This document shows, piece after piece, positions 8,806 through 61,103 of a stretch of 64,000 nucleotides of DNA. The DNA lies in assembly GCF_963921235.1 (NCBI RefSeq), contig NC_086108.1, positions 41,170,001-41,234,000 of the forward strand, in the 5' to 3' direction. The DNA is from Mobula hypostoma. Taxonomy: Eukaryota. How positions within the stretch are numbered: position 1 is the first letter of the stretch; each line of letters begins with the position of its first letter. The translations under genes were made by a program, and so were the position numbers. A model generated the notes under the pieces. The model ran no database searches. It saw only the letters and a program-made list of their open reading frames with translations, and was not told the DNA's origin.

Positions 8806-9042
8806 TGTGTATTTAATGTTACAGTAATACTTGAGTAATCTTGTAAATATATTAGTTAGTTAAGCTTTCATTTTGGTTTATATAATTCATCATGGTTATA
8901 TGTTAAAATGTGTGATTAAATATGTTGTGAGACTTATGATACATGTGCACCCTGCTTAAAATAAAAATTAAGTTAGAATCACATTTTAGAATTCCAGTTT
9001 CCTTTTAGTTTGTTTAATGTTTTGGAGTTACAAAACATAACA
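8806..9042 (+). repeat. 5' LTR of the Gypsy element, followed by a PBS remnant (gtggcaagg)
   Basis: Aligns with 12985-13195 (atcttgtaaatatatt...tttggagttacaaaac..aaca). Confidence 0.85.
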
Positions 9043-9279
9043 GTGGCAAGGATCTACGTTTAAAACGAACCTGAAAAGACTACCTATCTGTTGAAGCACA
9101 GCAAGACATCTGTGTTTTTAAAAAAAATGTGTAGCAAGAAATGGTCAAATGTTTTTTAAAAAGCACCACAGCCCATGCACAGAAGGTCAAGTTAAAAAAA
9201 TGGAAGGAAACAGAAGAATTCATTCATTCAAGAGCAGTGATTACCAGATGATAATAATAATCATTAAAAAGGAATAGAA

Positions 9280-15774: not shown

Positions 15775-17350
15775 GTGGCCACGTCTGTCTTTACAGTGTA
15801 GTTCAAGTCTACACTGGTCATGCTCTACAACTCTTTCTGCACTACATCAATGACTGCATTAGTGTTGCTTCCAGAACCCGTGCTGAGCTCACCAATTTCA
15901 TCAACTTTGCCTCCAACTTCCACCCTGCTCTCAAATTTATTTAGTCTATTTATGACCCTTCTCTCTCCTTTCTCAATCTCTCTGTCTTCATCTTTGAGAA
16001 CACACTATAATCTTTTATAAACCTACTTGCTCTCACAGTTACCTTGACTATACCTCTTCCCACCCTGTCACTTGTAAAAATTCTATTCCCTTCTCTCAGT
16101 TGCTGTGTCCTGTGTCTGTTCTCTGAATGAGACTTTCAATTCCAGAACATCTGATACGTCCTTCTTCTTCTTCAATGAATAGGCTTTCTCTTCCTCTACC
16201 ATCGATACTGCCCTCACTCTCATCTCTTTCATTTCCCAGATATTCGCCCTCACCCCATCTTCCTGCCGCCATAACAGAGATAGTTTCCCTTGTCCTTACC
16301 TACCACCCTCCAAGCCTCCATACTCAGCATATTATTCTCCGTAATTTCCACTATGTTCAATGGGCTCCTGCCACTTATATCATTTACTCCCTCATTCCCC
16401 TCCCGCTGCTCTCCAATTTCTGTAGGGATTGTTCTCTATGTGACTCCCTCATCCATTTATCTTTCTCTACTAATCTTGCTCCTGGCACATCACTGCAAGT
16501 GGGACAAGCATTACATCTACCCCTGTATCTCCTATCTCACCACCATTCAGGACCTAAATGGTCCTTCCAGGCGAGGTGACACTCCACCTGTGAGTCAGTC
16601 ATAGTTACCCACTGTATCTGGTGATCTTGCTGTGAACTCCTCTACATCAGTGAAAGCCAACATAGGTTCAGGGACGCCTTTGTCGAGCATCTTTACTCTG
16701 TCTGCCACAAAAGGTGTGATTTCCTGTTTGACTCCCATTTTAATTTCTGACATGTTAATCCATGGGCTCCTCTACTGCCACAATGAGGACACTCTCAGAT
16801 TGTACGAACAGCTCGTCATATTCCATCTGGGTAGCTTCCAACCTGATGGCATGAATATCAATTTCTCTCATTTTTGGTAATTTCTCCCCCTCCCCTAGTT
16901 CACTCTTTCTCCATTCCCCATTCTGGCTCCCTTCTTACCCCTTCTCTTCTTATGAGCTGTTCATTAGCTCCCGTAGGTACCCCTCTTCCTTCCCTCTATT
17001 CTGTGGCCCCCTGTCACCTCCTATCAGATTCCCTCTTCTTTTGCTCTTTACCTCTTCCAACTTTCAGTGAGAAGGTGAAGCTTCTCATTTCATCCCCTCC
17101 CCCACCCACCCACCTTCGCCCTCACCAGGTTTCACCTATCACCTGCCAGATTGTACTCTTTCCCATCCCTCACCTTCTTATTCCAGTTTCTTCCCCTTTC
17201 CTTTACAGTCCTAATGAAGGGTCTCAGCCCAGATTGTCGACTGTTTACTGCTCTCCACGGATGCTGCCTGACCTGTTGCTCAGTTCCTCCAGCATTTTGT
17301 GTGTGTTGCTTTGAATTTTCAGCATCTGCTCAATCTCTTGTATTTATGCT
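15775..17350 (+). mobile_element. Penelope-like element, 5'-truncated (RT end, Cys linker, GIY-YIG, 3' UTR)
   Basis: LFLHYINDCI..FASNFHPALKF (RT), LVLTYHP, and GIY-YIG tail EQLVIFHLGSFQPDGMNINF. Perfect 14-bp TSD ATTGGTTTGGGACA at 15761-15774 and 17351-17364. Confidence 0.92.
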
Positions 17351-19342: not shown

Positions 19343-19495
19343 GAACACAAACAAAATACTAGAGGAGCTCAGCAAGTCCGGCAGCATCTAGGGAAATGAA
19401 TAAACAGTCGATGTTTAAGGCAGAGCCCATTTTTCTGGGCTGGAAAGGAAGGAGAAAGGTGCCAGAATAAAAAGGAGGGGTTTGGAAGGAGAAAG
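19343..19495 (-). mobile_element. PLE 3'-end fragment
   Basis: Reverse PLE terminus with an eroded hammerhead motif; ATATTATAG at 19334-19342 and 19496-19504 (possible TSD). Confidence 0.65.
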
Positions 19496-19689: not shown

Positions 19690-22045
19690 CCTCAAGGATA
19701 GTAATCTTGGGATTGCAGCCTGTGCCATGTGACAATCAGGATAGGAATAGAATGGGGTGGCAGATAAATGCATAGCTGAAGAGTTGGAGCAGGGGGCAGG
19801 GATTCAGATTTCTGGATAACTGGGACCTCTTCCGGGACAGGTGAGACCAGTATGAAAAGGATGGGTTGCATTGGAATCCAAGTGGAACCAATATTCTTGT
19901 AGTTAGGTTTACTAGAGCTGTTAGGAATGGTTTAAATCAATATGGCAGAGGGATGGGAACCAGTATGATTGAGCTGAGGATGAGCCAGCAGGTTTACAAG
20001 TAGACAATAGATGTAACATGAATATAAGGAAGGACAAGCCAATGATTGGGTACAAGTGTAGAGAGAGTGCAGAGTTAAATTGTACCACAGCAGCAAAATT
20101 CAAAAGGGTGGAGAATACAGGACTGAAGGTGCTGTATTTAAATGCATGTAGCATTTGGCATAAGGTGACGAACTTGTGGCACAATTAGAGATTGGTTTGT
20201 ATGACATTGTGGGCATCACTGACCCATGGCTGAAAGAAGGCCACCGTTGGGAGCTAAACATCAAAGGATGAACTTTGTATCGAAAGGTCAGGCAGGAAGG
20301 CATAGACCATGATATGGTTCTGTTGGTAAGAGATGAAATGACATCTTTAAAAAGAGGTGACATAGGAACAGGGAATGTTGAATCTTTGTAGGTGGAGTTA
20401 AGAAACTGCAAAGGTAAAAAAACCATTATGGGAATCATATATAGGCCTCTAAATAGTAGCCAGGATGTGGGGTTGAGTTTGCAAAGGGAGCTGGAAAAGG
20501 CATGTAATAAGGGTAATGACACAATTGTAATAGGAGATTTCAATATGCAAGGGGATTGGGAAAATTAGGTTGGTGTTGGATCACAATTTGTTGAGTGCCT
20601 ATGAGATGGTGTTTTAGAGCAGCTTGTGCTTGAGCCTACTCAGGGAAAGGCTAGCTTAGACTTGGTGTAGTGTAATAACCCAGATCTTATTAGGAAGCTT
20701 AATGTAAAGGAACCCTTAGGAGGCAGTGATCATCATAGGATTGAATTTATACTGCAATTTGAGAGGGAGAAGCATAAGTCACATGTTTCAGTATCGCAAT
20801 GGAATAAAAGGAATTGAAGAGGTATAGGAGAGGAGCTTACCCAGGTGGATTGGAGGAGGATACTGGTGGGGATGATGGCAGACCAGAGATGGCTGAAGTT
20901 TCTGGGAATCATTCCCAAGGCACAGGATAGATCTGTCCCACAGAAGAAAAAATTTTCAAATGGCAGATGTAGGCAGTAGTGGCAGACAAGGGAAGTTAAG
21001 GACTGCATAAAAAGCCAAGGAAAGGGCATATAAGGTAGCAACAGTGAGAGAGAAGATGGATGATTGGGAAGCTTTTAAAATCCAACAAAAGGCGGCTAAA
21101 AAAGCTGTAAGGGAAAAGATTCAATGTGAGGGCAAAATAGTCAATAACAATAAGCAGGATACCAGAAGTTTTTTTTTCAGTTATATAAAGAGTAAAGGGG
21201 AGGTGAGAGTTGATATTGGACCACTGGAAAATGATACTGGTGAAATAGTAATGGGGATAAAGAAATAGCAAATGAATTTAATGGGTACTTTGCATCTGTC
21301 TTCACTGTGGAAGAACCTAGCACTGTACCAGGGATCTGTGAGTGTCAGGGAGCAAGAATGAGTGCCAATGCAATGACAAAAGAAACAGTGCTAGGCAAAT
21401 TCATAGGTCTTAAGGTAGATATCTCCTGGACCAAATGGACTACATCCTAGAGTCCTGAGAGAGGTTGCTGAAGAGATAACTGATGCATTTGTCATGATCT
21501 TTCAAAAATCATTTGATTCTGGCATGGTCCTGGAGGACTGGAAGATTGCAAATGTCACTGCCCTCTTTAAGAAGGGAGGAAGGCATAAGAAAGAAAATTA
21601 TAGGCCAGATAACCTAACCTCAATGGTTGGGAAAGAGTTGCAGTCCATTATTAAGGACAAGGCTTTGGGATACATGGAGACTAATGATAAAATAAATCAA
21701 AGTCAGCATGGTTTCTGTGAAGTGAAATCTTGCCTGGCAAATTTGTTGGAATTCTTCGAGGAGTAACAAACAGGGTGGACAAAGGAGAGGTAGTGGATGT
21801 CATTTACTTGGATTTTCAGAAGGAATTTGATAAGGTGCCTCACATGAGGCTGCTTAACAAGATAAAATCCTATGGTGTTACAGGAAAGATATTGGCATGG
21901 ATAGAGGAATGGCTGACAGGCAGGAGGCAGTGAATGGGAATAAAAGGGGCCTTTTCTGATGGCTGCCAGTGACTGGTGGTGTTACTCAGGGGTCAGGCTG
22001 CACTTTGAGTATTGTCAATTTTTTTGGGCCCCATATCTCAGAAAG
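19690..22045 (+). mobile_element. CR1 LINE (ORF1 esterase end, APE endonuclease, RT N-terminal half), dead and internally deleted
   Basis: YEKDGLHWN (SGNH DxxH) near 19850; LYLNA.SI; IIYRPLNS; GDFN; EDWKIANVTALFKKG; VIYLDFQKEFDKVPH. The sequence jumps from the QGS motif to EYCQFF near 21997. Confidence 0.92.
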
Positions 22046-24334: not shown

Positions 24335-26005
24335 CAAAGATTCCTACTGCCAAACATATCTTTACTCCACTTTCCACAGGGATCGCTTCCTCCGTGATCC
24401 TCTTGTCCATTTGTCCCTCCTCATTAATCTCCCTGCCAGCAGAAGTGTTACATGTGTTCATTCACCTCCTCGCTCAGCTCAATTCAGGGCCTCAAACAGT
24501 CCTTCCAGGTGAGGCAAAACTTCACCAGCAAATCTGCTGGGGTCATCTAACGTGTCCAGTGCTCCCAATGCGGCCTTCTCAACATCGGTGAGACCCTCAG
24601 AAATTGGGAGACTGCTTCATCGAGCAGCTCCGTTCCATTCGCCAAAAACAGAACTTCCCAGTGGCCAAACGTTTTAATTCCCATTCCAACATTTAAGAGA
24701 TGGGGCAGGGGAGAGGGAAATACAAGGTGACAGGGAAAACCTGAAGGGAGAGGGGATGGAATAAAGAGCTAGGAAGTAAATTGGTAAAAGAGACAGACAG
24801 CCGTGGAACAAAGAGAAGGGGGGAGGAACACCAGAGGAAGGTGATGGGCGGGCAAGGAGATCGCTACTCCTCCACTTCCTCCATGGCATCTGCTCTCAGG
24901 ATGAGGCTTTTCATTCTAGAATGAAGGAGATGTCCTATTTCAAAGAAACGGGCTTCCCTTCCTCCACCATCAACACTGCTCTCAACCGCATCTCTTCCAG
25001 TTCACGCCTGTCTGCTCATACCCCATCCTCTTGCCACCCTTCCAGGGATAGGGTTCCTCTTGTCCTCACCTACCACCCCACCAGCCTCCATGTCCAACCC
25101 ATAATTATCTGCAACTTCCGCCATCTCCAATGGGATCCCACCACCAAGCATATCTCTCTCTCCACCCACCCACTTTCTGCTTCCCACAGGGATCACTCCC
25201 TATGCAACTCCCTTGTCCATTCATCCCACCCCACTGATCTCCCTCCTGGCACGTATCCTTGCAAGCAGAACAAATGTTACACCTGCCCCTACACCTCCTC
25301 CCTCACTGCCATTCAGGGCCCTAAACAGTCCTTCCAGGTGAGCTGACACTTCACCTGTGAGTCTGTTGGGGGTTATAGACTGCGTCCGGTGCTCCCAGTG
25401 CGTGGCCTCCTGTTTATCGGTGAGACCCAACATAGATTAGGAGACCGCTTCACTGAGCACCTACGCTCTGTCCACCTGAAAAAGCAGGATCTCCCAGTGG
25501 CCACCCATTTTAATTCCACTTCCCATTCTTATTCCAATATATCAATCCATGGCCTCCTCCACTGTTGTAATGAGGCCACACTTAGATTGAAGGATCAACA
25601 CCTTATATTCCATTTGGGTTGCCTCCAACCTGATGGCATGAACATCGATTTCTCGAACTTCCAGCAATGCCCCATACACCCCCCCCACCTCTCCTTCACC
25701 ATTTCCAATCCTATTTTCCTTCTTCCACCTTGCCCGCCCATCGCCTCCCTCTGGTGCTTCTCCCGGCTTCTCTCTCTTCCATGCCTTCTATGTCTTTTAC
25801 CAATATACTTCCCAGCTCTTTAGTTTGTCTCCTCCCCTTCAGGTTTCACCTATCACCTTGTGTCTCTCTCTCACCTCCCCCAACATTTAAATCTACTCAG
25901 CTTTTTTTTCTCCAGTTCTGCTGAAGGGTCTTGGCCCGAAGCATCAACTGTACTTTTTTCCTAGATGCTGCCTGGCCTGTTGAGTTCCTCCAGCATTTTG
26001 TGTGA
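24335..26005 (+). mobile_element. Composite Penelope-like locus: older GIY-YIG fragment (24335-24690), inverted 3' UTR piece (24695-24862), plus-strand RT end/GIY-YIG/3' UTR (24863-26005)
   Basis: RDRVPLVLTYHP; TYPCKQNKCYTCPY; LLFIGETQHRLGDRFTEHL..PVATHFNS..LQPDGMNIDF. Confidence 0.9.
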
Positions 26006-27834
26006 GTTCCTCCTCAAAGTTTGCTTGAACCCCAATGCTTATTTTGTCTGCAAATTGAGCATAAGCCCCATCCTCCCCAATAGCTCATCATCCTTGGCTA
26101 CTGCTTGGCTACTGATGCTCTTGCCAAGAAATGTCATACCTTCCCCCCCACAATACTCCAGTTTTGTCCCCTTGTCCTGACTAATGCCCCCAACTTCAAC
26201 CCTTCCTTCTCGCCAACAACCCCAACATTTAGAAATGGCACTCCACTCCTATCAATTTATCCTGTCCGTTTTCCCAGTGGATACACACACTTAGGCCCTG
26301 CCCATGGGTTCCTCCTCCATGCAATTCCTGAATCGGCCATATCTCCGGACTCAAATCTTTCAATACGTGCTACCGGTGTCCTCAGCAAAAGGTTATTTGA
26401 ACAAAGGGTTCATTATCCCACTCTGACCCTTTAAACAGGTGTCTTTCAATCTCCAAGCAGATGTTTATGTTTTCTGCTTTTTCTACAAAAAAACCCATAA
26501 ATTCTGGGTCTAATTTTCAACTCTTCTGCCCAGCGGTTTTGTTCAGGAATTGTCTATAATTAACAATGATACGAAGATAATGGGAAACATGAGTATGAGT
26601 CAGGCCGCTTCATATGCGACAATTGCAGCTGTTCTACTGTTGCGGATCAAGTGGTCTTGGTTACTGCAGCACACAAGACCACATTACCAGGAGCTATATT
26701 TTGCTGCAGCTGATTTTGCAGCTTTGGCTTATGTGACTCTTTTGCTGACTACTATTGCTGACTCTTCATCCTGAAAAAGGCAGCCCCAGCTGTTTGCGAA
26801 CAAAGGGACAACAGAATTATTATCAGTCCCAACTTCCTAAGAAGTGATTGAGTGGTGCATTTGCAGAGGTCTAAAGGTGTGTAGTCACAATTAATGAGAA
26901 GATGCTTTGAGTTCAAAATCAGAGACTTCATAATAATGCGAGTCTCCCTAATAACGATCTAATCACATGTAGTAATTAAGCTTTGCAGACATTTTGATAA
27001 AGCGTCATTAGCCTGAAACATTGGCTTATATTTCTACAAACAAGGCTTAACAGCCTCAGATTTTCCAGCATTTCTGTATTTGTGCGTGGCTAAGGTTCCT
27101 TCAGTGAAACATAATTGAATTTTATACCACATGAGTTTGGAGGGTGGCGCTCAGGGAGGGGGTCAGTTGGCACTTTGTGCAACTCAGTTCAGGGGAGCTC
27201 AATAAGTAACTCGGAAGATCGTGGTGACTGGACTGGAAGTGTTGGCGGGCCGATGAGAGATGTGTGGTGGTCGATAGTGAATGTTGGTGACGATCTTTGG
27301 TGTTACCTTGCTGGGACCACTAGAGATTTTTCTGCTCCTTTATGGTCCCTAGTCAGGTTGGCATATTAAAATTTTAATCTTAATTTGTTTCTGTCTCATT
27401 TCCTTCAATGTCAAAAATTTTTTTTTAATTGGCAGATGCTGGAAATCTAAAATTAAAAAAAAGAAAATACTGAAAATACTCAGTAGGTCAGACAGCATCT
27501 GTAGAAAGAAAAAAAGAGTTAACCTTTTCTGTCTTTATCCCCGAATGTCTGTATGGGCTGCAAAATATACCTAGTTTTCTTCAGATCAGCTAGGAGTCCT
27601 GGGCCTCTGTCAGGGGCCCCACTCGGGGATTAGACTCCAGGAAAAGATTTGCTGCAAATTTGATTATTAAGTACCACTTTTCCTGGATGACTGCTCATCC
27701 ATTTCTCGATTATAATAAATTTAGCCACTCAAGTAGGCCTATTGGAACCTCAGGAAGCTATTAACCCAGCCCAAATAAGTGGTACATGGACAAATTTCAA
27801 GCTTGTGTTTGGAAACTTGGTATAAAGCATGGTT

Positions 27835-27952
27835 GCAACACACACAAAATGCTGGTGGAACGCTGCAGGCCAGGCAGCGTCTATAGGAAGAGGTACAGTT
27901 GATGTTTCGGGCTGAGACCCTTCGTCAGGACTAACTGAAAGAAGAGATAGTC
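27835..27952 (-). mobile_element. 118-bp PLE 3'-end insertion carrying the hammerhead motif
   Basis: Near-identical to the 48012-48130 arm; flanked by ATAAAGCATGGTT (27822-27834) and ATAAAGAATGGTT (27953-27965). Confidence 0.85.
27896..27933 (-). ncRNA. Minimal type I hammerhead ribozyme motif
   Basis: Minus strand tagtc CTGACGA aggg-tctcag-ccc GAAA cATC aactg. Confidence 0.6.
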
Positions 27953-30900
27953 ATAAAGAATGGTTCATTTGCAAGACAACATGTTACAAACATACATATC
28001 ATTGGTGAGTCTAGGAGTACTGGCGTCATAAGTGGAAAACGGTGCGGAAAAGTATCTTGAGGACATTACCATACATGGTTTAGCAAAATGTGGTCAAAAT
28101 GTGGGCAAAGTATGAATGGGAAAGGCCAACTGGCCTGCTCCTGTCTTGTCTGTTCCTATATATACATCCTACCAGTCAACATCTTAAAAAGAAGAAAAAA
28201 AAGTCTGCAGAAACCCATCTCAGGTTGGATGCTTTCAAACTGTGTGAGTCTGAAGCTTTGGGATAACAAGGCTCAGTGACTCTGGTTTTCTTAGTGCATT
28301 TGCTTGAGTCCAAACAACTCATTGGTTGGGGCACAATTTAAAATAATTCATGAGCAAATTTCCATATGCTCTGTAATGCTGAAGAAACCGACAAATACAC
28401 AGCAGCATCCTATAAAGACAAAACACTGTCTCACAGTTGTGTTTGTTGTATCCCATCTTTGGTCTGGCTGGGTTCATTTACCATTTAGGTAACTTATATA
28501 GAAGTTTGATAAAATTTGACAGTAGTTAACATTTAGCAAAATGTAGATTTGTTCAATTCAGAAGCTGGATTACAATTCTGATTAAGGTTCCCAGAGCTGA
28601 GAACAATTTCTCTTTCCATTAACACTGCCTGAGCTGCTGAGTGTTTCCAGCATTCCCTGTGTTGTTTCAGAATCTGAATTTTTGTTTTAATTTCAATTAC
28701 CTTTGGACTACTTTAGAGGATTGGTTTGGGTTATGCCTTCAACATGCTTATAACATTTGTGATAACTGAACTTAAAGGGGACGTCTAACCAAGAAGGGAA
28801 GTAACTAAAGCTGCTATGCAACAATTGCCAGGCAAAAGGATTGAGTTCTCAATTGACAGACAGCAAATAGCAAGACTCCTTTTGGGCACAGATATTCTCA
28901 AAGATACTCAGCAGGTCAGGTAACACCTGGGGAAAAAGTCATTGATCCAAGATGTTCACTCTTGACAAATGAAGGGAGAGTTGTCTAACACTTGCATTTC
29001 TAGTGCACTGCTGCAGAGCAGATTTTATCAATAACAACTGTTTAATCCAGTTCTTAACGGGTCTCTAACTCCACCACTGGAATCTTCAGTGTAGAGAGTA
29101 GCCAAGTTTCAGTGTCTCCGTATAAATTCGATTTGCATATCCGTACACAAAAATCTAGCCTGCCAGTAACGAAGGAATGATATCCAGTTGGCAAGAACAC
29201 ATTTCAAATATTCACCTTGTGTTTTGGCTAATACGCTTGCTTGGGCCAATATCTCAAACTGGATTGCCTGATAACTGTAAAGTCACTGTGTTCTGAAATT
29301 TAACCAGTATTTCCTACAATAATGGCTGTGTATCGTAACAAATATTTATCTATTTATTCAGTTCCTACATCTGACACCATTGTGTCTCTTCAATTAAATT
29401 CCTAGCAATGGGAGTTGCTTGCATACATGCTCTAAACTTCATTTAAGTTTGAAGAATAAGCACCACATGGTACTTCCCAGCACATTAAATATCAATCAGC
29501 AATTAGAACAGACTATATATTTCAGTTTTTGCACATATTTACTGTTCTATCCAAAGCCATGATATTATTATCTTTTGTTGGTAGCTACCTGCTGGAATAT
29601 TATATACAATGAAGATTAATGTGCAGTTTTCCAGTGATCTGCTTACTGAAATACAGTGTCCCATATTTTTAAACATGAAAGAAAAGCCTTTACATAATGC
29701 AATCACATGGAGGGGAGCATGGTACCTAATCGTCATAAATATCAAAGAATTTTCTACAGAGGGTGGTAATGGGTTTAACAATGTAAAAGTGATTTTTTTT
29801 ATAGAATGCTGAATATAACCAGTTAGGCAGTGAAAATTAACAAAAAAAAAGGGAAAATGAAAACAGTGATGTTATTTCATCTGGAGATTTCCCTCCCTCA
29901 TATCTGCAGTTTATCATTTCCCCACCGAACAATGAGGTTCGTTCTTCACCCTACGTATACACATGGCCCACTTATTTTTTTTTTCCGAAGTTTAATGTCA
30001 GGTCCAGCTCCAGAGATCTTAGCATCAAGATCTAGGCCATTGCCAAGGGATGGCATTTAAAGTAAGGTCTCAGGAGATGAAAAGGTTACCAAGATAATGT
30101 TAAGCCAAAGCAAGGCAGTCAACACCAGTGCCCCGGTGAATTCTTCTTCTACAACCGTATTACTAAAATCATACATGATCATCATGACAGAAATTTGTGT
30201 CCCTTTGTACACAAATTATCAACTGCTTTCCCACTAGTAATATAGCTTCAAAAGTACTTCAGTGGCCATAGGGTCCTTTGAATTTTTGTGTCTGAAGGAG
30301 AAGATGATGGGGAGATCAATGATGTCATCAAGTTTGAAATTAACAAAGACATGGGTTTCAGTAGCTGGCTAGTTATGGTAACCATCTCGGCTTAATTCTT
30401 CTTTCCTAAGCACCCATTAGCTTTGGTCCATCCATTCCAACTCCATTCTCCTGACCCCAGAAACCTTCTTCTTCACCACTATTGATGAGTCCCTTGATTT
30501 TACCCCTTCAGTTTCTTTTCTGAAGATATTCATCTTCACAGGGAAGACTTTCTTCCATCCCCATTACTGCATCAGACCATCAATGCCATTTTCCTATTAT
30601 CTACAACAATGCTCCACCATCTTTCATTACAATTAGTTTAATTCAACCTTGTTCACAATTCCATTATTTTAACTTCTCACTGAATCTCTTCGATACTTAC
30701 AGGACCCATGCTTTCAAATCTTCCAGTTTCATTGTGCAGGGATGCAAAAGTTTCTTTCACGTGAAATGGTAGTTTATGTTCAGTGTTTGTCATGTAGGAC
30801 ATTTTGTTGCTCTGAGATTTTATTAACTATTTCTCTCCTCCATCATCCACATCAACCACTTACACCAAAAGTTTTTTTCTGCCTCATTGAGTTACTTACA

Positions 30901-31480: not shown

Positions 31481-32282
31481 GCAGAAGCGCGATGAGGATT
31501 GTTTGGGACACTGAATGGAAGTGAGGGAGGAGGTGTATGGTGCATGCCCATATACCTCCTTCCTTACCTCCATTCAGGACCCCAAACAATCCTTGCAGGT
31601 GAGGCAACACTTCACCTGCGAATCTACTGGGGTTGTCTATTGTGCCCAGAGCTTACAATGCAGTCTTCTTTACACTGGTGAGACATTTCATAAATTGGGG
31701 GACCGCTTCGTCGAGCACCTCCACACAATCTGCCATGCGCAGAAGTTCCTGGTAGCCAAACATTTTAATTCCAACTCCCATTCCCGTTTCGACATGTCGG
31801 TCCATCTCCACCTCTTGTGCCAAGATGAATCGACCCTCAGGGTGGCAGAGCAAGACCACATATCTGGGCAGCATCCAACCTGATGGCATGAATATCAATT
31901 TTTCTTTCCAGTAAAAACATTTCCCCACTCTGACCCTTTACCCCTTCTCACCTGCCTATTAATTCCCCTGAGGCCCCTCCTCCTTCCCTTTCTCCTGTGG
32001 TCCACCCTCCTCCCCTATCAGATTCCTTCTTCTGCACCTCTTCAGCTTTGTCACCCACCTGGCTTCATCTATCACCTTCCAGCTAGCTTCCTTCCCCTCC
32101 CCACCACTTTTTTTTATTCAGGCATCTTCCCTCTTCTTTCTCAGTCCTGAAGAATGGTCTCAGCCTGAAACATCGACTGTTTATTCATTTCCATGGATGC
32201 TGCCTGACCTGCTGAGTTCCTCCAGCATTTTGTCTGTGTGTTGCTTTGGATTTCCAGCATCTGCAGAATTTGTCATGTTTAT
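31481..32282 (+). mobile_element. Penelope-like element (GIY-YIG and 3' UTR) with a 5' snap-back inversion
   Basis: FTCESTGVVYCAQSLQCSLLYTGETFHKLGDRFVEHL; hairpin at 31495-31593; AAGGGTTACA/AAGGGCTACA flanks at 31471-31480 and 32283-32292. Confidence 0.9.
32142..32179 (+). ncRNA. Minimal type I hammerhead ribozyme motif
   Basis: cagtc CTGAAGA atggtctcagcct GAAA cATC gactg; helix I pairs perfectly (cagtc/gactg). Confidence 0.6.
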
Positions 32283-33639: not shown

Positions 33640-34076
33640 AACACACACAAAATACTGGAGGAACTCAGCAAGCCATAGCCAGCATTTACGGAAAATGGTA
33701 CAGTCAACGTTTCGGGCTGAGAAAAACAATGATGAGGAATCAGAGTTAGAAAGTGGGGAGATGGGAGGATGAAACACAAGGTGAAAGGTGAAACTGAGAG
33801 GCGGGAGGGTGAAGTAAGGAGTTGGGAATTTGATTGGTGAAAGAGATAGAGGGCTGGAGATGGGGGAATCTAATAGGAGAGGACAGAAGGCCATGGAAGA
33901 AAGAGAAAGGAGGAGCACCAAAGGGAGACGATAGGCAGGCACAGAGATAAGGTGAGAGCAGGAAAAGAGTATAGGGAATAGAGAAGCGGGCTGGTCTTCA
34001 TTACCGGAACTTCAAGAAATCAATGTTCATGCCCTAAGGTTGGAGGCTACCCAGATGGAATATACTGTGTTGCTCT
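33640..34076 (-). mobile_element. PLE 3' fragment (GIY-YIG end and 3' UTR); hammerhead half deleted
   Basis: The reverse strand encodes IFHLGSLQP.GMNIDFLKF followed by the pyrimidine-rich UTR. Confidence 0.85.
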
Positions 34077-39430: not shown

Positions 39431-41320
39431 TAAGGTATTGACTGCAAACATAGCAAGCACAATGAAATAGATGCAGAGTTTATGATGGGACCCAAGCATA
39501 GTCGTTTCAGATTCCCTAATATTTAACTGGAGGAGATTCTATTCATCTACGGTAGGATGTTGGACAAACTGCCTGCCAATAAAGAGACAGTATGGAGGGG
39601 AGGGGTGGGGTGGCAGTCAGAGTTGGGTGTGTGGCTGTAGCTAGCATGGGAGGCTGGCATTGCAAAAGTTGGTAGAGAAGTTGGTCTGGATGTCAAATAT
39701 ATATGCGTGAAGGAAACAGTCAGGGCCATCATGCAATTGAGACCACAGGCAAATTCCCAAGGAATGGCTGAAAGTAAACAATCCAAGAACAGACTTGGGA
39801 ACAACAGTCAAGCAAATGTTTAACCAAATGAGAAGGATCCCGTTAAACTGGAGGAAAGAAATTGAACGAAAATATCTCAAATACTGCAGAGAGGTTGGGG
39901 AGGATGATGAAAAGGGATAATAATCATAGGGAGGATGTCACTTATGAATTTAGTGTGACCCTACTCTATTACATAGAGTAGATGGCCACAACGCCATGCT
40001 TCCATGGTGCCAGCTGCAATTGGCCTATCTGAGCAATTATGTTGCTTTTACCTGCTAGAAATGGAGGCAGTACCAGGAATGGAAGAGAGCAAAGGGAAGG
40101 GCAACCATCCAGGAGAAGGAATTATTGACCATGGTGAGAAAAGCCTACTTCCAATCCTCAAGAATTATCCAAGTCTCGTGTTCAGACCTCCAGCAGCCCA
40201 TGAGAATCTAAGATGTTCTTAATTGGTAATGTCACAAATCACAGTGTGCAACTTACTACTACATGTGGGATGTTGCAGATGTTCTCTCTTCAAAGAGGGG
40301 AAGTTATGCTCCTTCCACGTAGAGCTAAAGGTGCTGTGGGCATGTGAGTATCCATGCACTACAGTAGAAATGAAGAAAGAGAAGCAGAATTCACCACACT
40401 GTCACAGACCTCATATCGTCACCCTGTCATCGTTACATTTACAGAGTCCCCTTCCGAACAAGTAAAGAAAATCAAGCAGTTCAACAGAACTAATGGGTTT
40501 TAAAATTCACCGAATGCTATAACAATTCAGTTGAAGACTATTCACCCTTGTGCCTCCCTTTATGCCCATATCCCATACACTTTGCAAGGCCTGCACTGAC
40601 ACATCCCTTGGCTGGTGATTGGTTGCTCCCTTACCATAAAGTATTCCAATAATTTGCTCAGCAACAGAACTGAACACTTGGTTTGAAATCTGCTGTACTC
40701 CAACCTCCTTTTTAAAGTAACGTACAAAGTTACTGATTTCATCCCATTCAACATTTTGCATTCATTCACCTTAGTTACTGGCATCTACCCCCTCCTTTGT
40801 GACTACAGTCCCAGAATATTCATTGAAAATTCTGTCTATCTATACCTTCTACCTCCACACACTGGTTGTCTTTTTGGTCACTAGGACACCCTGCCCTTTC
40901 TCTTTATGTAATTGTAAGACATTTTGATTTCCTTAATTTCACTCCCTAATTTTTTTTTTCATTTTCATTCTTTAATTTCCCTTTTAATTTTAATCCTACC
41001 TTTCCTACTGTCTTCCAGGCTTTCTGTTGTATTAATTTCTTGGTATTACATACAAACTTCTGCTTTTTTGTTCTATCCTTCTTTCTTTGCAACAACATCC
41101 AAAAGTTATAGTGAATAGAATATCGAACATAGAGCAGTACAGCACAGGAATAGGTCCTTCAGCCCACCATGTTGTGCCAAACCTATTAAATTAGTAATCA
41201 AATAACCAACTAAACTAATCCACAAACACGAGGAAATCTGCAGATGCCGGAATTTCAAGCAACACACATAAAAGTTGCTGGTGAACGCAGCAGGCCAGGC
41301 AGCATCTATTGGAAGAGGTA

Positions 41321-41358
41321 CAGTCGACGTTTCGGGCCAAGACCCTGCATCAGGACTA
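41321..41358 (-). ncRNA. Hammerhead motif with one core substitution (CTGATGC)
   Basis: Minus strand tagtc CTGATGC aggg-tcttgg-ccc GAAA cGTC gactg. Confidence 0.5.
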
Positions 41359-41650
41359 ACTGAAAGAAGAGCTAGTAAGAGATTTGAAAGTGGGAGGGGG
41401 AGGGGGAGATCCAAAATGATAGGAGAAGACAAGACGGGGAGGGATGGAGCCATCCTCTCATCCTCTGGGTTTCCCCCCCTCCCCCTTTTCTTTCTCCCTA
41501 GGCCTCCTGTCCCATGATCCTCTCATATCCCTTTTGCCAATCAACTGTCCAGCTCTAGGCTCCATCCCTCCCCCTCCTGTCTTCTCCTATCATTTCGGAT
41601 CTCCCTCTCCCTCTCCCACTTTCAAATCTCTGACTAGCTCTTCCTTCAGT

Positions 41651-41688
41651 TAGTCCTGACGAAGGGTCTCAGCCTGAAACGTCGACTG
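41651..41688 (+). ncRNA. Minimal type I hammerhead ribozyme motif, intact core; predicted cleavage after C41683
   Basis: tagtc CTGACGA agg-gtctcag-cct GAAA cGTC gactg; palindromic ACGT in place of helix III. Confidence 0.7.
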
Positions 41689-44059
41689 TACCTCTTCCAA
41701 TAGATGCTGCCTGGCCTGCTGCATTCACCAGCAATTTTTATGTGTGTTGCTTAACTAAACTAATCCCTTCTGCATGCACAATGTCCATATCCTTCCATTT
41801 CTGTCACATTCCTGTGCCTATCTAAATGTCTCTTAAAATTCCACAATGAACCTGCCTCTACCAGCACCCAAGGCAACCCATTCCAGGCACTCACCACTCT
41901 CTGGGTAAAAAATTTGCCCCTCACAATTCCTTTGTACTTGCCCCTCTCACCTTAAATACATGCCCTCTAGTATTAGACATTTCAATCCTGGTAAGAAGAT
42001 GCTGTCTCTCTACTGTATCTATGATCTCATAATCTTGTAAACTTCTATCAGATCTCCCCACCAGCCTTCGCTACTCCAGATAAAACAACTCAAGTTTGTC
42101 CAACCTCTCATTATTGCACAAGCCCTCTAATCCAAGCTACATCCTGGTAAACCACTTTTGCATCCTGTCCAAAGCCTTAACATCCTTCCTATAATGGGGT
42201 GACCTATGTGCAATAACTCAAGTTTATAAAGTTGCAACATAACTTCCTGACTTTTGAACTCAGTGCCTCTAATAATAAAGGAAAGCATGTCATATGTTTT
42301 CTGAACCACCCTATGAACCTGTGTAGCCACTTTCAGGGAGCTATGCATTTGGACTCTAAGATCTCTCTGCACAATGACACGGTTAAGGGTCTTGCCCTTA
42401 ACAGTGTACTGTCTCTTTACATTTGACCTACAAGGTGCAAAACTTCACATTTGGCTGGGTTAAATCCCATCTACTGTTTTTCCGCCCATATCTGCAACTG
42501 ATATATATCCTGCTGTGTTCTCTGCCAGACTTCTACACTATCCACATCACCACCAATTTTCCTATCATCTGCAAACTTACTTACCCACCCATCTACATTT
42601 TCATCCAGGTCACTAATGTTCATCACAGCTTCAGAGGCTGCAGTACAGAACACCTGCAGAACACCACTATTATAGATTTCCAGCTAGAGAAGTCCTGTCA
42701 ATCGCTACTTTCTGTCTTCAATGCACGAGTGCTGAATCCAAACAGCCAATTCACCATTGGTCCCATGAATCTTAATCTTCTGGATGAGCCTCCCATGAAG
42801 GACCTTATCAAGCACCTTACTAAAATCCATGTAGACTACATCCACAGCTCTACCTTCTTCAATCACCCTCATCACCTCATCAAAAAACTCAGTCAAGTTA
42901 GTAAGGCATGACTTGCTCTATACAGAGCCATGCTGGCTCTCCCTGGTTAGAAATTGTTTTCCAAATGCTCATAAATCCTATCCCTAAGAGCAATTTCCAG
43001 GATTATCTCTTGTTCCCTTCTTGAATCATGGAACAATGTTAGCTGCTCGCCAATCCTCCGGGTCCTTGCCTGTGGCCAGAGAGGACACAATTGATCAAGG
43101 CCCCAGTAGTCTCATCTCTTGCCTCTCCCAATAATCTGGGGTATATCCTACCAGGGTCTGGGGACCAATCCACCTTTAGGCTCTAAGAGACTCAACATGC
43201 CCTAGCATATTATTATTATTATTATTATTATTGGCACTGATCTCCCTATCCTATTCTCCTTGGTAAACACTGATATAAAGTATTCATTAATGACCTCATC
43301 CAAATCCTCCACATCCAAGCAAATCTTTCCTCCTTTGTCCCTAAGTGGTTCTACTCTCACCGTAATTATCCTCTTGATCTTGAAGTATGTATAGAATGCC
43401 TTGATTGTCCCATGCATCTGAAATTATAAAAACTAAGATATATATATATAACCTTTGAGAGAGCTAGTGGTCAAGGTTCAAAATATCCAAATATAGATAG
43501 ATAGATTGATACTTTATTGATCCCAAAGGAAATCACAGTGTCACAGTAGCATTACAAGTGCACAGATATAAATATTAGAATGGAAGTAGAATGAATAAAA
43601 AATAAGTTACAGCAGGGAGTCATCACTTCCCTGGCTATCAGGTATTAGAAATTGTCAGACATGGGGAAATAGGATCTGAGCAAGTAGACTGAATGTGAAA
43701 CATTTAGCGATCTGCATCTCAGGTCACTGACTATTAAACCAGCTCTTTCTGTTCTACATGGCCACCTAGCTCAAAAAGGGCCTTTTGCTTGGTGCTGTGG
43801 CCAGAGGCTGCAAATATTCTTCTTCCGGAACTTTGGAATCTGATTCATTTTTGTGCTTGAAGTTGTTGCTGTGGTTAAATAGGTCTACATGTGTGCGGAC
43901 ACTAGTGCAATGGTGAGAGCGTAGGAGCAATGATAGGTGTGAACTTGTAATAGTAGAGCTGTGTGCTGTCTTCACTGATTTTGAAAATGGCCATTAAACA
44001 TCTTGCCATAGTGGGATTATATCTCCTCACATTGACCACCCTGCCCATCTCCTCCCATT

Positions 44060-47856: not shown

Positions 47857-48073
47857 TAATTGTAAGTGGCATTGGCATTCACCAACCATACACCTGAAGG
47901 CAACTCTGCTGTTCTGATGTATGGCTTTTTATCTTCCTCATGATGATAAGGTAAAGCATTAAAGTCACACTTCTCGCCAACACGAGGAAATCTGCAGATG
48001 CTGGAAATTCAAGCAACACACACAAAACACTGGTGGAATGCAGCAGGCCAGGCAGTATTCATAGGAAGAAGCA

Positions 48074-48111
48074 CAGTCGACGTTTCAGGCCGAGACCCTT
48101 CGTCAGGACTA
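48074..48111 (-). ncRNA. Minimal type I hammerhead ribozyme motif, intact core
   Basis: Minus strand tagtc CTGACGA agg-gtctcgg-cct GAAA cGTC gactg. Confidence 0.7.
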
Positions 48112-48997
48112 ACTGAAAGAAGAGATAGTAAGAGATTTGAAAGTGGGAGGGGGAGGGGGAGATCCGAAATGATAGGAGAAGACAGGAGGGGGAGGGATAG
48201 AGCCAAGAACTGGACAGGTGATTGGCAAAGGGGATACGAGGCTGGAGAAGGGAAAAGATCATGGGATGGGAGGCCTAGGGAGAAAGAAAGGGGAAGGGGA
48301 GCGCCAGAGGAAGATGTAGAGCAGGCAAAGGAGTGATTGTGAAAGGGACAGAGAGAGAGAGAGAGAAAAGAGAGAAAAAAAGGGGGGAATAATAAATAAA
48401 TAAGGAATGGGGTAAGAAGGGAAGGAGGGGCATTAACGGAAGTTAGAGAAATCAATGTTCATGCCATCAGGTTGGAGGCTACCCAGACAGAATATAAGGT
48501 GTTGTTCCTCCAACCTGTGTGTGGCTTCATCTTGACAGAAGAGGAGGTCATGGATTGACATATCAGAATGGGAATGGGACATGGAATTAAAATGTGTGGC
48601 CACTGGGAGATCTTGCTATAATGGTGAGATCCGACGCAGACTGGGAGACCATTTCGCCGAACACCTACGCTCTGTCCGCCAAAAAAAGCAGGATCTCCCA
48701 GTGGCCACACATTTTAATTTATTTATTATTTTTTTTATTTTTTCCTTTTTTTCTCTCTCTGTCCTTCTCACTATAACTCCTTGCCTGTTCTCCATCGTCC
48801 TCTGGCACTCTCCTCCCCCTTTCTTTCTCCCTAGGCCTCCCATTCCATGATCCTCTCCCTTCTCCAGCCTTGTATCCCTTTTGCCAATCAATTTTCCAGC
48901 GCTTAGCTCTATCCCTCTCCCTCCTGTCTTCTCCTATCCTTTCGGATCTCCCCCTCCCCCTCCCACTTTCAAATCTCTTACTAACTCTTCTTTCAGT

Positions 48998-49035
48998 TCG
49001 CCCTGATGAAGGGTCTCGGCCTGAAACGTTGACTG
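48998..49035 (+). ncRNA. Hammerhead motif, intact core, weakened helix I, GUU triplet
   Basis: tcgcc CTGATGA agg-gtctcgg-cct GAAA cGTT gactg. Confidence 0.55.
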
Positions 49036-49724
49036 TGCTTCTTCCTATGGATGCTGCCTGGCCTGCTGCGTTCCACCAACATTTTGTGTGTATTGCTTAA
49101 AGTTACACTTCTGATTCTTTTCTCTGCTAGTTCAGTGAGCAGGATTAAGGAACGTTTGCCTGTGGTAATGAATGGCTATGTAAGTGATCAGCAACAGGGG
49201 TTGAAAATGGGTTTTTTTGTGATGATGGTGTATCACTGGCTATCAACTTCACTGCATCTCGGCCTCAATGGTCTAAAAATCACCACAGTTTGTAATGACA
49301 GCATTGTTAATTCACCAGCAATGTTCTATAATGTACCTGAAGACATGAAATGTCAAAGCTACCATAAGATTAACACAATGGCAACAGCCTATGGAACAAA
49401 GTGACTTAGTCTTTGCTGCGATCACTCGACATCCCATTGAAGTTTATAAAATGCATGCCATTCTGACATGCTGGAAAAAGATCCCCAGGTGGTTACATAT
49501 CAGGAATTGATCACAACAGGGCACAACTTACACCTGATGGCTTGGATGTTTAGTGAAATGGACACATGGCACTGCTGGTAGGATGAGGTGGAAGAGTGTA
49601 ATTTTACCATCCATTACAGTTTATATTGATGCCTCAGTCTATGCAGCTAGAAACAGAATGGTTTTCTTTTAATTAAGTATTAGCAGTCTGTTCGGACAGA
49701 AAGTTAAAACTCAACATGCACCGC

Positions 49725-50005: not shown

Positions 50006-50574
50006 CTTATAGCTTTTCCCAAGTGTGACCAAATGATTGCTAAAAATCTGAGAACTTACTGATGTGTTGATGTCACTGAGTAAGTTATCCTAACCAGGTA
50101 AAGTAATGAGCCAGTTGGAACTAGAAGAGACTACAGATGCTGAAATCTGAGGCAATAAAGAAAATTCTGGGGGAAATCAGTGGGTTAAGCAGCATCTATA
50201 AAGGGAAATGGAGAGTTAACATTATGAGCCGGAACAACTCTATATGAATCTGTAAATTTCTTCATATTGTAAAAGGTATTTAAAGGGCACTCACCATTGA
50301 TAACTTGATGAAGATGAACATTATATCTGAGAAAAGCAGCAGCTGTTCAGTTGATCTGGCAAGTACCTATCTTTCAACAAATATCTCTAAACCTGATTAT
50401 CTATCTGGTCTTCTTTCTCAACGTAGTTTGAAGGTTCCTGCTGTGAAAAAAAAATGAGTCTTATGTATTAGGGCAATATCAATATTTCAAAAGCACATTT
50501 TTGGCTCTAAATTGCCTGGGGTAGCAACCTGGTCAGTGGTGCCACATAAATGCAAGTGCCTTTTTTTCTTTCGT

Positions 50575-55949: not shown

Positions 55950-56857
55950 TCTGGAGATGGAAAACCTGGCTGAGTGGTGCCGCAGCAACAATCTGTCACT
56001 CAATGTCAGCAAGACCAAAGAGCTGATTATTGACTTCAGGAGGAAACTGGAGGTCCGTGATCTCATCTGGTGATCAAAGGTGGAGAGGGTCCTCGGTGTT
56101 AGCATTTTGGAGGACATGTCCTGGGCCCAGCATGTAAGTGCAATTACAAGGAAAGCACAACAACGCCTCTGCTTCCTTAGAAGTGTGCGAAGGTTCAGCA
56201 TGACATCTAAATCCTTGACAAACTTCTATAGATGTGTGGTGGAGTGTATATTGACAGGCTGCATCAGAGTCTGGTGAAACACCAATGCCCTTGCATGGAA
56301 AATCCTACAAAATGTAGTGGACACGGCCCAGTCCGTCACACGTAAAGCCCTTTCCACCACTGAGCACATCAATATGCAGTGCTCTTGCAAGAAAGCAGCA
56401 ACCACCATCAGGAACCCCCACTACCCAGGTCATTCTCTCTTCTCATTGCTACCATCAGGCAGAAGGTACAGGAATCTTGGGACTCACTCCAGCAGGCTCA
56501 GGAACAGTTATCACCCCTCAACCATTAGGCTTTTGAACCAGAGGGGATAACTTCACCCAACTTCACCTGTCCCTTCACTGACCTGTTCCCACAACCTACG
56601 GACTCACTTTCAATGACTCTTCATCTTGATATTTATTGCTTACTTATTCATTATTATTTATGTTTTTCTTTCTTTTTCTATTTTCACAGGTTGTTGTCTT
56701 TTGCATATTGGTTGTCCGCCTTGTTAGTGGGGTCTTTCATTGGTTCTATTATAGTTATTGGATTTATTGAGTACGCATGCAAGGAATTGAATATCGCAGT
56801 TATATGTGGGGTGCCATATATGTACTTTGATAATAAATTTAATTTGAACTTTGAACT
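55950..56857 (+). mobile_element. Rex1/Babar-type LINE, RT end to 3' tail
   Basis: WCRSNNLSLNVSKTKELIIDFR; KAQQRLCFLR; HYPGHSLFSLLPSGRRYR; (tttgaac)2 tail. Confidence 0.9.
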
Positions 56858-59800
56858 ATCTCTAGATTCCTCTGCTACCCAAACAGTGCCACGTGCCAGT
56901 GAGGGTAAGAATAGGATGCTCTGGCAGATGAACACGTGGCTGATGAACTGGTGTAGGGGCAGGATTTCAGCTTTCAGGATCATCAGGATCTCTTCTGGGG
57001 CAGGTGGGACCTGTACAAGAGAGACCGGTTACACCTGAACTAAAAGGGGATCAATATCCTTGCAGGGAGGTTTGTTAGTGCTGTTGGGGAGGGTTTAAAC
57101 TAGATTTGCAGGGGGATGGGAAACAGAGTGCCAGAGCAGATAGTGGAGCAGGGGTAAAAATAAATGATGTTAAAAGTTCATGCAAACTCACAAATAGAAG
57201 GATTGTGTGTGGTGGTAATAATCTTCTGAGGTGTATCTATTTCAATGCAAAGAGCATCCTGGGGAAGGCAGATGAGCCGAGGGCGTGGATTGACACATGA
57301 AATTACGACATTATAGCCATTAATGAAACTTGGCTACAGGAGGGGCAGGACTGGCAGCTTAATGTTCTAGGGTTCTGATGTTTCAGGCGTGATAGAGGCA
57401 GAGGAATGAAGGATGGGGGGGTGGCATTGCTAGTCAGGGAAAATGTTACAGCAGTGCTCAGGCAGGACAGATTAGAGGGCTTGTCTACCAAGGCCATATG
57501 GCTGGAGCTGAGAGACAGGAAAGGTATGACCACATTAATGGGGTTGTATTATAGACCACCCAATAGTCAGTGAGAATTGGAGGAGCAAATCTGCAGAGAG
57601 ATAGCAGACAACTGCAGGAAACATGAAGTTATGATAGTAGGGGATTTTAATTTTCCACATATTGGTTGGGACTCCCATACTGCTAAAGATCTAGATGGGT
57701 TAAAGTTTGTAAAATGTGTTCAGGAAAGTTTTCTAAATCAATATATAGAGGTACCAACTAGAGAGGATGCAATATTAGATCTCCCATTAGGAAATAAGTT
57801 AGGACAGGTGACAGAAGTTTGTGTAGGGGAACTCTTTGGTTCCAGTGATCATAACACCATTAGTTTCAACTTGATCATGAATAAAGATAGATCTGGTCCT
57901 CGAGCTGAGGTTCCAAACTGGAAAAAAGCCAAATTTGAAGAAATGAGGAAGGATCTGAAAGGCGTGGATTGGGACAGGTTGTTCTCTGGCAAGGATGTGA
58001 TTGGTAAGTGGGAGGCCTTCAAAGGAGAAATTCTGAGAGTGCAGAGTTTGTATGTTCCTGTCAGGATTAAAGGCAAAGTGAATAAGAATAAGGAACCTTG
58101 GTTCTCAAGGGATATTGGAACTCTGATAAAGAAAAAGAGAGAGATGTATGATACGTATAGGAAACGGAGTAAATAAGTTGCTTGAGGAGTATAAAAAGTG
58201 CAAAAAATACTTAAGAAAGAAATCAGGAGAGCCAAAAGAAGACATGAGGTTACTTTGGCAGACAAGGTGAAGGATAATCTAAAGAGCTTCTACAGGTATA
58301 TTAAGAGCAAAAGGATGGTAAGGGATAAAATTGGTCCTCTTGAAGATCAGAGTGGTCAGCTATGTATGGAACTAAAAGAAATGGGGGAGATCTTAAATTT
58401 TTTTTATATCTGTATTTACTAAGGAAATTGGCATGGAGTCTATGGAAATAAGGCAAACAAATAGTGAGGTCATGAAACCTATACAGATTAAAGAGGAGGA
58501 GGTGCTTTCTATCTTGCGGCAAATCAGAGTAGATAAATCCCCAGGACCTGACAGGGTATTCCCTCGGACCTTGAAGGAGACTAGTGTTGAAATTGCAAGG
58601 GCCCTGGCAGATATATTTAAAATATCGGTATCTATGGTTGAGGTGCCAGAGGATTGGAGGATAGCTCATGTTGTTTAAAAAAGGCTCTAAAAGTAGTCCG
58701 GGAAATTATAGGCCAGTAAGTTTGACATCGGTAGTAGGTAAATTATTAGAAGGAGTACTAAGAGGTAGGATCTACAAGTATTTGGATAGACAGGGACATA
58801 TTAGGGAGAGTCAACATAGCTTTGTGCGTAGTAGGTCATGTTTAACCAATCTATTAGAGTTTTTCGAGGAGGTTACCAGGAAAGTGAATGAAGGGAAGGC
58901 AGTGGATGTTGTCTACATGGACTTCAGTAAGGCCTTTGAAAAGGTCCAGCATGGGAGGTTAGTTAGGAAAAGTCAGTCGCTAGGTATACATGGAGAGGTG
59001 GTAAATTGGATTAGACATTGGCTCAATGGAAGAAGCCAAAGAGTGCTAGTGGAGAATTGCTTCTCTGAGTGGAGGCCTGTGACTAGCGGTGTGCCACAGG
59101 GATCAGTGCTGGATCCATTGTTACTTGTCATCTATATCAATGATCTGGATGATAACGTGGTAAATTGGATCAGCAAATTTGCTGATGATACAAAGATTGG
59201 AGGTGTAGTGGACAGTGAGGAAGATTTTCAAAACTTGCAGAGGGATCTGGACCAGCTGGAAAAATGGGCTGAAAAATGGCAGATGAAGTTTAATACAGAC
59301 AAGTGTGAGGTATTGCACTTTGGAAGGACAAACCAAGGTAGAACATATAAGGTAAATGGTAGGACACTGAGGAGTGCAGTAGAACAGAGGGATCTGGGAA
59401 TACAGATACAAAATTCCCTAAAAGTGGCGTCACAGGTAGATAGGGTCATAAAGAGAGCTTTTGGTACATTGGCCTTTATTAATCAATGTACTGAGTATAA
59501 GAGTTGGAATGTTATGATGAGGTTGTATAAGGCATTGGTGTGGCCGAATTTGGAGTATTGTGTGCAGTTTTGGTCACCAAATTAGAGGAAGGATATTAAT
59601 AAGTTTGAAAGAGTGCAGAGAAGGTTTACAAGGATGTTGCCAGAACTTGAGAAACTGAGTTACAGAGAACAGTTGAATAGGTTAGGACTTTATTTCCTGG
59701 AGCAGAGAAGAATGAGGGGAGATTTGTTAGAGGTATATAAAATTATGATGGGTATAGATAGAGTGAATGCAAGCAGGCTTTTTCCACTGAGGCTCGGGGA

Positions 59801-60112
59801 GAAAAAAACCGGAGGACATGGGTTAAGGGTGAAGGAGGAAAAGTTTAAAGGGAACATTAGCGGGGGCTTCTTCACACAGAGAGTGGTAGGAGTGTGGAAT
59901 GAGCTGCCAGATGAAGTGGTAAATGGAGGATCACTTTTAATATTTAAGAAAAACTTGGACAGGTACATGGATGAGAGGTATATGGAGGGATATGGTCAAG
60001 GTGCAGGTCAGTGGGACTAGGCAGAAAAATGGTTCGGCACAGCCAAGAAGGGCCAAAAGGCCTGTTTCTGTGCTGTAATGTTCTATGGTTCTATGGTTCT
60101 ATGGTTCTATGG
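56858..60112 (+). mobile_element. CR1 LINE with ORF1 esterase end, complete-length ORF2 region and 3' tail; youngest-looking copy but inactivated
   Basis: KRDRLHLN; CIYFNAKSI; IVGDFNFPHIGW; SSDHNTISF; KSPGPD; GVPQGSVLDP; SKFADDTK; (ttctatgg)4 tail at 60081-60112. Confidence 0.96.
57106..60020 (+). pseudogene. CR1 ORF2 (APE endonuclease and reverse transcriptase) pseudogene; longest open piece 58668-59585
   Basis: Consecutive ORF pieces separated by in-frame stops and frameshifts. Confidence 0.93.
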
Positions 60113-60971: not shown

Positions 60972-61103
60972 CGCAAACAACAGGAATTCTGCAGATGCTG
61001 GAAATTCAAGCAACACACATCAAAGTTGCTGGTGAACGCAGCAGGCCAGGCAGCATCTCTAGGAAGAGGTACAGTCGACGTTTCAGGCCAAGACCATTCA
61101 TCA
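60972..61103 (-). mobile_element. PLE 3'-end fragment truncated inside the hammerhead core
   Basis: Matches 41222-41352; the minus strand starts at TGATGA..GAAAcGTCgactg. Confidence 0.85.

Follow-up and report, generated by a model that had tools for sequence, protein, structure and literature searches.

Does a run of 38 bases in the genome of the ray Mobula hypostoma specify a self-cleaving RNA and, if so, would that RNA cut anything in its present location? The question concerns positions 41651..41688 (+) of a 64,000-nucleotide stretch of contig NC_086108.1, referred to below as the window. A first-pass annotation of this DNA described the segment as one of about ten hammerhead ribozymes embedded in a Penelope-like element (PLE) and suggested that such a density of latent motifs could cut read-through or intronic transcripts. 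The hammerhead motif of PLEs is a kind known since 2014, when Cervera and De la Pena reported minimal hammerheads in the terminal repeats (pLTRs) of metazoan PLEs (PMC4209133).

The 38 bases are, judging by their sequence, a minimal type I hammerhead motif of the PLE kind; the assignment draws on the layout given in PMC4209133, on a descriptor search and on folding, and the status as a ribozyme is argued from likeness to tested relatives. The two strands of helix I (41651-41655 with 41684-41688) form 5 bp, one of them U.G and none broken. They enclose the CUGANGA box (41656-41662), an extra A between positions 9 and 10.1 (41663; an A in nine of the ten copies scored), helix II (41664-41667 with 41672-41675; 4 bp, two of them G.U, none broken, with a 4-nt loop) and the GAAA box (41676-41679). 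Both core boxes are thus present together with a UH cleavage site (U41682-C41683), and the cut is predicted after C17 (C41683). There is no stable helix III, and positions 15.1-16.1 carry the palindrome ACGU in its place (41679-41682), as the first-pass annotation had stated. The 10.1-11.1 pair, however, is G.U instead of G-C both here and in the copy at 48074; over 11 copies, it is G-C in four, G.U in three and unpaired in four. G10.1-C11.1 is highly conserved in the consensus of PLE minimal hammerheads and lies outside the published descriptor (PMC4209133). Because C11.1 sits in a CpG, decay is the likely cause of the G.U.

Published PLE minimal hammerheads share with this motif the type I form without loop III, the palindrome at 15.1-16.1, the unpaired nucleotide between 9 and 10.1 and a helix I of 5 bp; they also lie in terminal repeats, occur mostly as dispersed single copies of truncated elements and form opposite-strand pairs 100-700 bp apart (PMC4209133). 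The ray motif differs in having a helix II of 4 bp, as compared with 7-8 bp in the Schistosoma families (PMC4209133), in the G.U at 10.1-11.1 of the 41651 copy and in its host. Layout and position at the 3' end of the element therefore support the earlier classification as a PLE minimal type I hammerhead of the dimer type. Neither shark nor skate, Leucoraja or Callorhinchus turned up in a search of supplement file 2 of PMC4209133, and in the literature outside subscription journals and bioRxiv supplements we found no paper devoted to elasmobranch PLE hammerheads or to a vertebrate PLE intron at helix I.

All ten locations listed in the first-pass annotation hold a copy of one repeat, and the statement that the 38-nt arrangement recurs at the 3' end of the PLE stands. 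An eleventh, heavily decayed copy, absent from that annotation, was detected by copy alignment and the descriptor at approximately 19405..19442 (-). Five copies had been considered intact. Both catalytic boxes are intact in all five, but a strict descriptor, comprising the core boxes, both helices and the UH site, was passed by only two of the 11 copies, 41651 (+) and 48074..48111 (-). Pair scoring showed the remaining three to be damaged: the copy at 48998..49035 (+) has two of five helix I pairs broken and U17, that at 27896..27933 (-) has lost the palindrome (ACAU) and the 2.1-1.1 pair, the first of helix I, and that at 32142..32179 (+), which belongs to an older subfamily, has U.U at 10.1-11.1 and has also lost the palindrome (ACAU). 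The other five, described as mutated or truncated, indeed have core changes or missing parts. Pair scoring found G5 and the GAAA box altered at 17206..17243 (+, older subfamily) and A9 replaced by C at 41321-41358 (-); at 25913..25950 (+, older subfamily) A6, A15.1 and the palindrome are altered and the first helix I pair is U-A, not C-G. Copy alignment showed that only the 3' half of the motif is left at 33701..33722 (-) and that the copy at 61072..61103 (-) is broken off within the first core box. Thus, most copies are mutated, with many changes at CpG sites. The 11 copies correspond to approximately nine insertions, since those at 41321 and 41651, as well as those at 48074 and 48998, are the two arms of one insertion each. 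An Rfam search of the window, one of the checks proposed in the first-pass annotation, yielded 10 matches at E<=1, and no hammerhead family was among them; the best entry, MIR1858 (91 bits against a cut-off of 137), simply reflects the inverted repeat. A 21-letter flank pattern had 0 loci in viral contigs, 20 in metagenome contigs and 11 in prokaryote genomes, and all 31 were dropped because not one of them could be aligned to the element over more than a short match.

What element carries the motif? In five copies it follows an endonuclease frame and a pyrimidine-rich 3' UTR, which is the pLTR position of a PLE. Upstream of the 25913 motif lies a broken PLE frame (24780..25660, +) with the end of the reverse transcriptase (RT) region, a CX4CxxC linker (in frame 24780-25346) and a GIY-YIG endonuclease. 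The window's own PLE fragments had no Pfam match, and it was the homologues (P0001-P0007) that showed a single frame with the RT ahead of a C-terminal GIY-YIG endonuclease. These are the seven protein matches of frame 25392-25661, five of which come from Hypanus sabinus or Mobula hypostoma at 70-79% identity and carry a YIDD-like RT motif. The GIY-YIG signal is weak in the homologues: P0002 (E 4.6e-4) is below the Pfam cut-off, and P0007, which is 46% identical to the window frame, is above it. A CX2-5CxxC zinc-finger-like linker marks Neptune and Nematis PLEs (PMC8557442). The linker therefore suggests a Neptune-type element, with Neptune preferred over Nematis on account of the vertebrate host and not as a clade assignment from an RT tree.

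The PLE family is very large, as 153,114 contigs of DNA run X1 align to one 581-nt copy, a depth that does not represent a copy number. In three presumed RNA runs, 7,570-11,778 contigs match the repeat family, a signal at the family level that is not locus-specific. A contig of X18 that returns from 48495 to 48011 is a partial tandem of the family. X1 also contains three joints from 48109/48110 to 48073/48074 with 1-3 letters between, which may represent head-to-tail doublings of the 37-nt motif alone, already in dimer form, or else inversions at the two arms of helix I. Distant PLE tails that have the block found downstream of the motif and no recognisable core were observed at approximately 27432-27519 (-), 28613-28664 (+), 50131-50210 (-) and 28907-28927 (-). 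Additional PLE fragments, one of them inverted (24691-24857), lie at 24370-24857, upstream of the longest copy (24889-26011). At 31495-31593, the 5' end of an older PLE copy forms a hairpin of ~100 nt, derived from an inverted element piece, whose Rfam microRNA-family matches are weak and far below cut-off. Other repeats in the window are LTR-type retroelement fragments at 10781-11504 (+; Pfam RVT_1 and rve), LINE remains at 56074-60020 (+; endonuclease frame 57574-58173, reverse transcriptase frame 58665-59582, and a Pfam ALKBH8_N match at 56074-56274 within them) and pieces of another repeat at 1824-2691 and 20585-21958, which are inverted, 18-20 kb apart and 83-91% complementary.

The immediate surroundings of the motif are a single insertion (41222-41752), composed of two 5'-truncated PLE 3' ends placed head to head. 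Its arms are complementary over 195 nt (93%, differing at 14 of 195 positions). The right arm (41453..41752, +) holds the motif and ends before the tail, whereas the left, inverted arm (41222..41452, -) has a tail of ~35 nt (41222-41256); a 14-bp target-site duplication flanks the whole (41208..41221 and 41753..41766, +). The second complete motif lies in a similar insertion at 47975..49098, with 327-nt arms that are 90% complementary, a tail on the left arm only and a target-site duplication of ~14-16 bp with one mismatch (47959-47974 and 49097-49112). Inverted 5'-truncated copies, an optional tail of 30-40 bp and a target-site duplication are known PLE anatomy (PMC8557442 and PMC3846280), and both insertions show it. 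Each complete motif is thus one arm of an inverted repeat, and an antisense partner therefore adjoins both. If transcribed, 41222-41752 and 47975-49098 would yield double-stranded RNA, a substrate for editing or small-RNA pathways.

The predicted folding was dominated by these repeats. A transcript of 41200-41800 was predicted to form a hairpin of -378 kcal/mol (z -26), and all nine hammerhead pairs had a predicted probability of 0.0 in both inverted repeats. When only local sequence was folded, the probability of helix II was <=0.35 in all eight copies. The isolated 38-mer favoured a hairpin in which G5-G8 pair with C15.2-C17 (41657-41660 with 41680-41683), and the active-like fold of the monomer had P=0.0006 at both 41651 and 48074. 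The G5-G8/C15.2-C17 pairing may be a built-in lock of the monomer according to these models; this off state works with either C or U at position 7. The ACGU/ACGU duplex needed for a dimer contributes -1.7 kcal/mol, and two copies co-folded into other duplexes. In the RNAalifold consensus, the strands of helix II paired with the downstream block and not with each other. It should be noted that these are equilibrium models, which ignore tertiary contacts, proteins and the order of transcription.

These data fit best, and we consider it very probable, that the segment is a hammerhead motif from the pLTR of a PLE of the Neptune type, a motif kept by selection only in active parents, and that the copy at 41651 is an inert, decaying passenger. 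In an active tandem element, two motifs would pair through their ACGU palindromes and so form helix III, the element's own protein would bind the conserved downstream block and probably help, and the RNA would then be cut after C17. A lone motif would be switched off by pairing of G5-G8 with C15.2-C17, and in a transcript running through 41222-41752 the motif would pair with the antisense arm and could not form. The ray motif would thus function, if at all, in tandem transcripts of parent elements, through dimers or with the help of protein. Luense, Weinberg and Breaker have reportedly devoted a paper to dimer cleavage.

Two tested systems are informative here. Monomers of metazoan minimal hammerheads do not cleave, and their dimers or trimers do so weakly (PMC4209133 and PMC6765202). 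The hammerhead of PAc, a Poseidon element of Anolis carolinensis, cleaves only with the element's protein and is dispensable for insertion in vitro (PMC11167929). As in the ray element, the PAc motif lies near the element end; a conserved region comes next, and then an optional tail bounded by two reverse-transcription start sites (PMC11167929), and the insertion at 41222-41752, one arm of which has a ~35-nt tail and the other none, matches two such start sites. By analogy with PMC11167929, the block at 41700..41752 (+) is likely the protein-binding and reverse-transcription start region. However, PAc belongs to the Penelope/Poseidon clade, whereas the ray element has the CX2-5CxxC linker of Neptune/Nematis, and protein-assisted cleavage, demonstrated for PAc, is inferred for the ray element. 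A further relative is found in the non-LTR retrozymes, whose type I hammerhead derives from PLE terminal repeats and which are reported from one chondrichthyan genome (bioRxiv 10.64898/2026.07.22.740005); origin of the hammerhead and chondrichthyan host are thus shared with the ray motif. Retrozymes require head-to-tail arrays, and the motif was present in none of the six tandem repeats of the window, so this reading was rejected.

Might the dispersed copies nevertheless act as latent ribozymes and cut read-through or intronic RNA of the host to a measurable extent, as dimers in cis or in trans or with protein? A family of this size could supply partners in trans, six of the ten copies scored retain the ACGU palindrome, and the X18 contig shows that partial tandems occur. 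On the other hand, only two of 11 copies are complete and both are predicted to be sequestered in inverted repeats, the palindrome duplex is weak and meets competing co-fold duplexes, and same-strand copies are spaced 5.8-13 kb apart. In addition, ray gene models hold the motif within spliced coding sequence, and the anole element gave no RNA-seq ends at the cut site (PMC11167929). There was also no host exon among the 243 frames of at least 55 aa outside self-repeats searched with Pfam, a search that short exons would escape; only retroelement-type domains were found, in four frames. We therefore regard host-RNA cutting as improbable, and the first-pass suggestion of about ten latent ribozymes per 64 kb acting in this way is not borne out. 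The two complete copies of the window likely do not cut host RNA, as far as the folding models indicate.

A somewhat less probable alternative still is that the motif is non-catalytic in this lineage and is kept as a protein-bound RNA or as overlapping coding or splice-site sequence. The majority letters of the young and older subfamilies agree at 32 of 38 positions of the motif, 13 of 40 upstream, 7 of 14 in the downstream linker and 42 of 46 in the further-downstream block, and since this block (41700..41752) is as conserved as the motif, the conservation is not ribozyme-specific. An overlapping reading frame or a protein-binding site could keep both, and in several copies one of the frames that cross the motif is open. 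The low helix II probabilities in local folds and the RNAalifold pairing of its strands with the downstream block point the same way, as does the absence of an effect of core mutants on anole insertion in vitro (PMC11167929). Against this, no core nucleotide departs from the metazoan hammerhead consensus, to which the extra A and the palindrome also conform (PMC4209133), and the anole motif does cleave, with loss and rescue by G8C/C3G (PMC11167929).

Within the young subfamily, non-CpG mismatches affected 1 of 53 core and 27 of 519 flank positions (p=0.50), a comparison of low power based on six copies that include two pairs, each from one insertion. Covariation was likewise not significant: one of nine pairs showed a two-sided change, which 100 of 500 shuffles reached (11 copies). 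Conservation between subfamilies and none detectable within the young one fit selection on active parents and neutral decay of copies, i.e., the passenger reading preferred above. In X1, summed depth peaked over the motif bins, which is partly an effect of private reference changes beside the motif, and among the 40 variants listed of 96 the only position in the motif was 11.1. The matches of 794 X1 contigs break off at 48110, at the 5' boundary of helix I.

Chance similarity to a short pattern has a negligible probability and is largely refuted by position and layout: although enrichment of the bare pattern CTGANGA-N4-30-GAAA is weak (12 matches versus a mean of 6.84, with 4 of 100 shuffles reaching 12) and folding z-scores of 51-nt pieces are unremarkable (-0.64 at 41651), the strict descriptor that followed up the first-pass proposal found two loci versus a mean of 0.015 in 200 shuffles, none of which reached 2 (both hits are copies of one repeat and hence not independent), and the place of the motif in the pLTR is constant and coincides with the known site of PLE hammerheads (PMC4209133 and PMC8557442).

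The 5' edge of helix I has a second potential role. Directly before it lies a pyrimidine tract followed by CAG (41627..41649, +), a candidate splice acceptor; of the 4124 YAG sites in the window, 2.9% have a pyrimidine content as high. Eight of the nine copies checked combine a pyrimidine tract with a YAG that falls at the 5' strand of helix I or slightly within it, which resembles Drosophila virilis Penelope, where an intron ends at helix I of the hammerhead (PMC4209133). The fly element differs in its 2-bp helix I, small helix III and established intron, whereas the ray intron is suggested by gene models. Seven ray gene models include a translation of the helix I stretch, and four of them begin at the predicted acceptor; these are automatic predictions, and their starts were judged from protein sequence only. 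P0009 and P0027 start at the residue expected from the young-subfamily site, while P0029 and P0031 start at the older-subfamily site, precisely at the point at which the normal isoform of the host gene departs from its exon; the P0031 start needs two base changes from the family majority. Of the other three, P0028 has its start within the core, P0008 apparently reads through the site from upstream and P0030 gives no information. One Hypanus model has two isoforms (P0004 and P0026) that part immediately behind the last codon of the element, as expected from a donor at the stop codon. P0010-P0012 proved to be unrelated repeats.

It is possible, though we consider it rather unlikely, that a retained spliceosomal intron occupies the ~300 nt of pyrimidine-rich sequence that separate the stop codon from helix I. 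Its splicing would remodel helix I of the older subfamilies and thereby switch the ribozyme, and its acceptor, present in a very large number of copies, would supply ray genes with new exons. The underlying arrangement, with a donor at the stop codon and an acceptor at helix I of an intron that genomic copies of a vertebrate Neptune element have kept, is put forward as tentatively. Among the 15 joints listed of 136 there was no donor-to-acceptor splice. The 48110-48432 joint, which is present in all three presumed RNA runs and absent from X1, was rejected as a splice: the donor site is still there, and another subfamily with a different UTR is the better reading. At the donor position of the young subfamily, GT is frequently absent (48436), which makes an intron less credible there, and isoform P0032 splices to a different acceptor further downstream, which makes the tail a general exon trap.

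The scale of the PLE family would allow a test within one genome of whether complete motifs have been purged from sense-strand introns and of whether selection acts on parents only. If the intron reading is true, the acceptor at helix I would extend the link between intron and ribozyme known from Drosophila Penelope to vertebrates, and PLE tails would be a source of new exons in rays.
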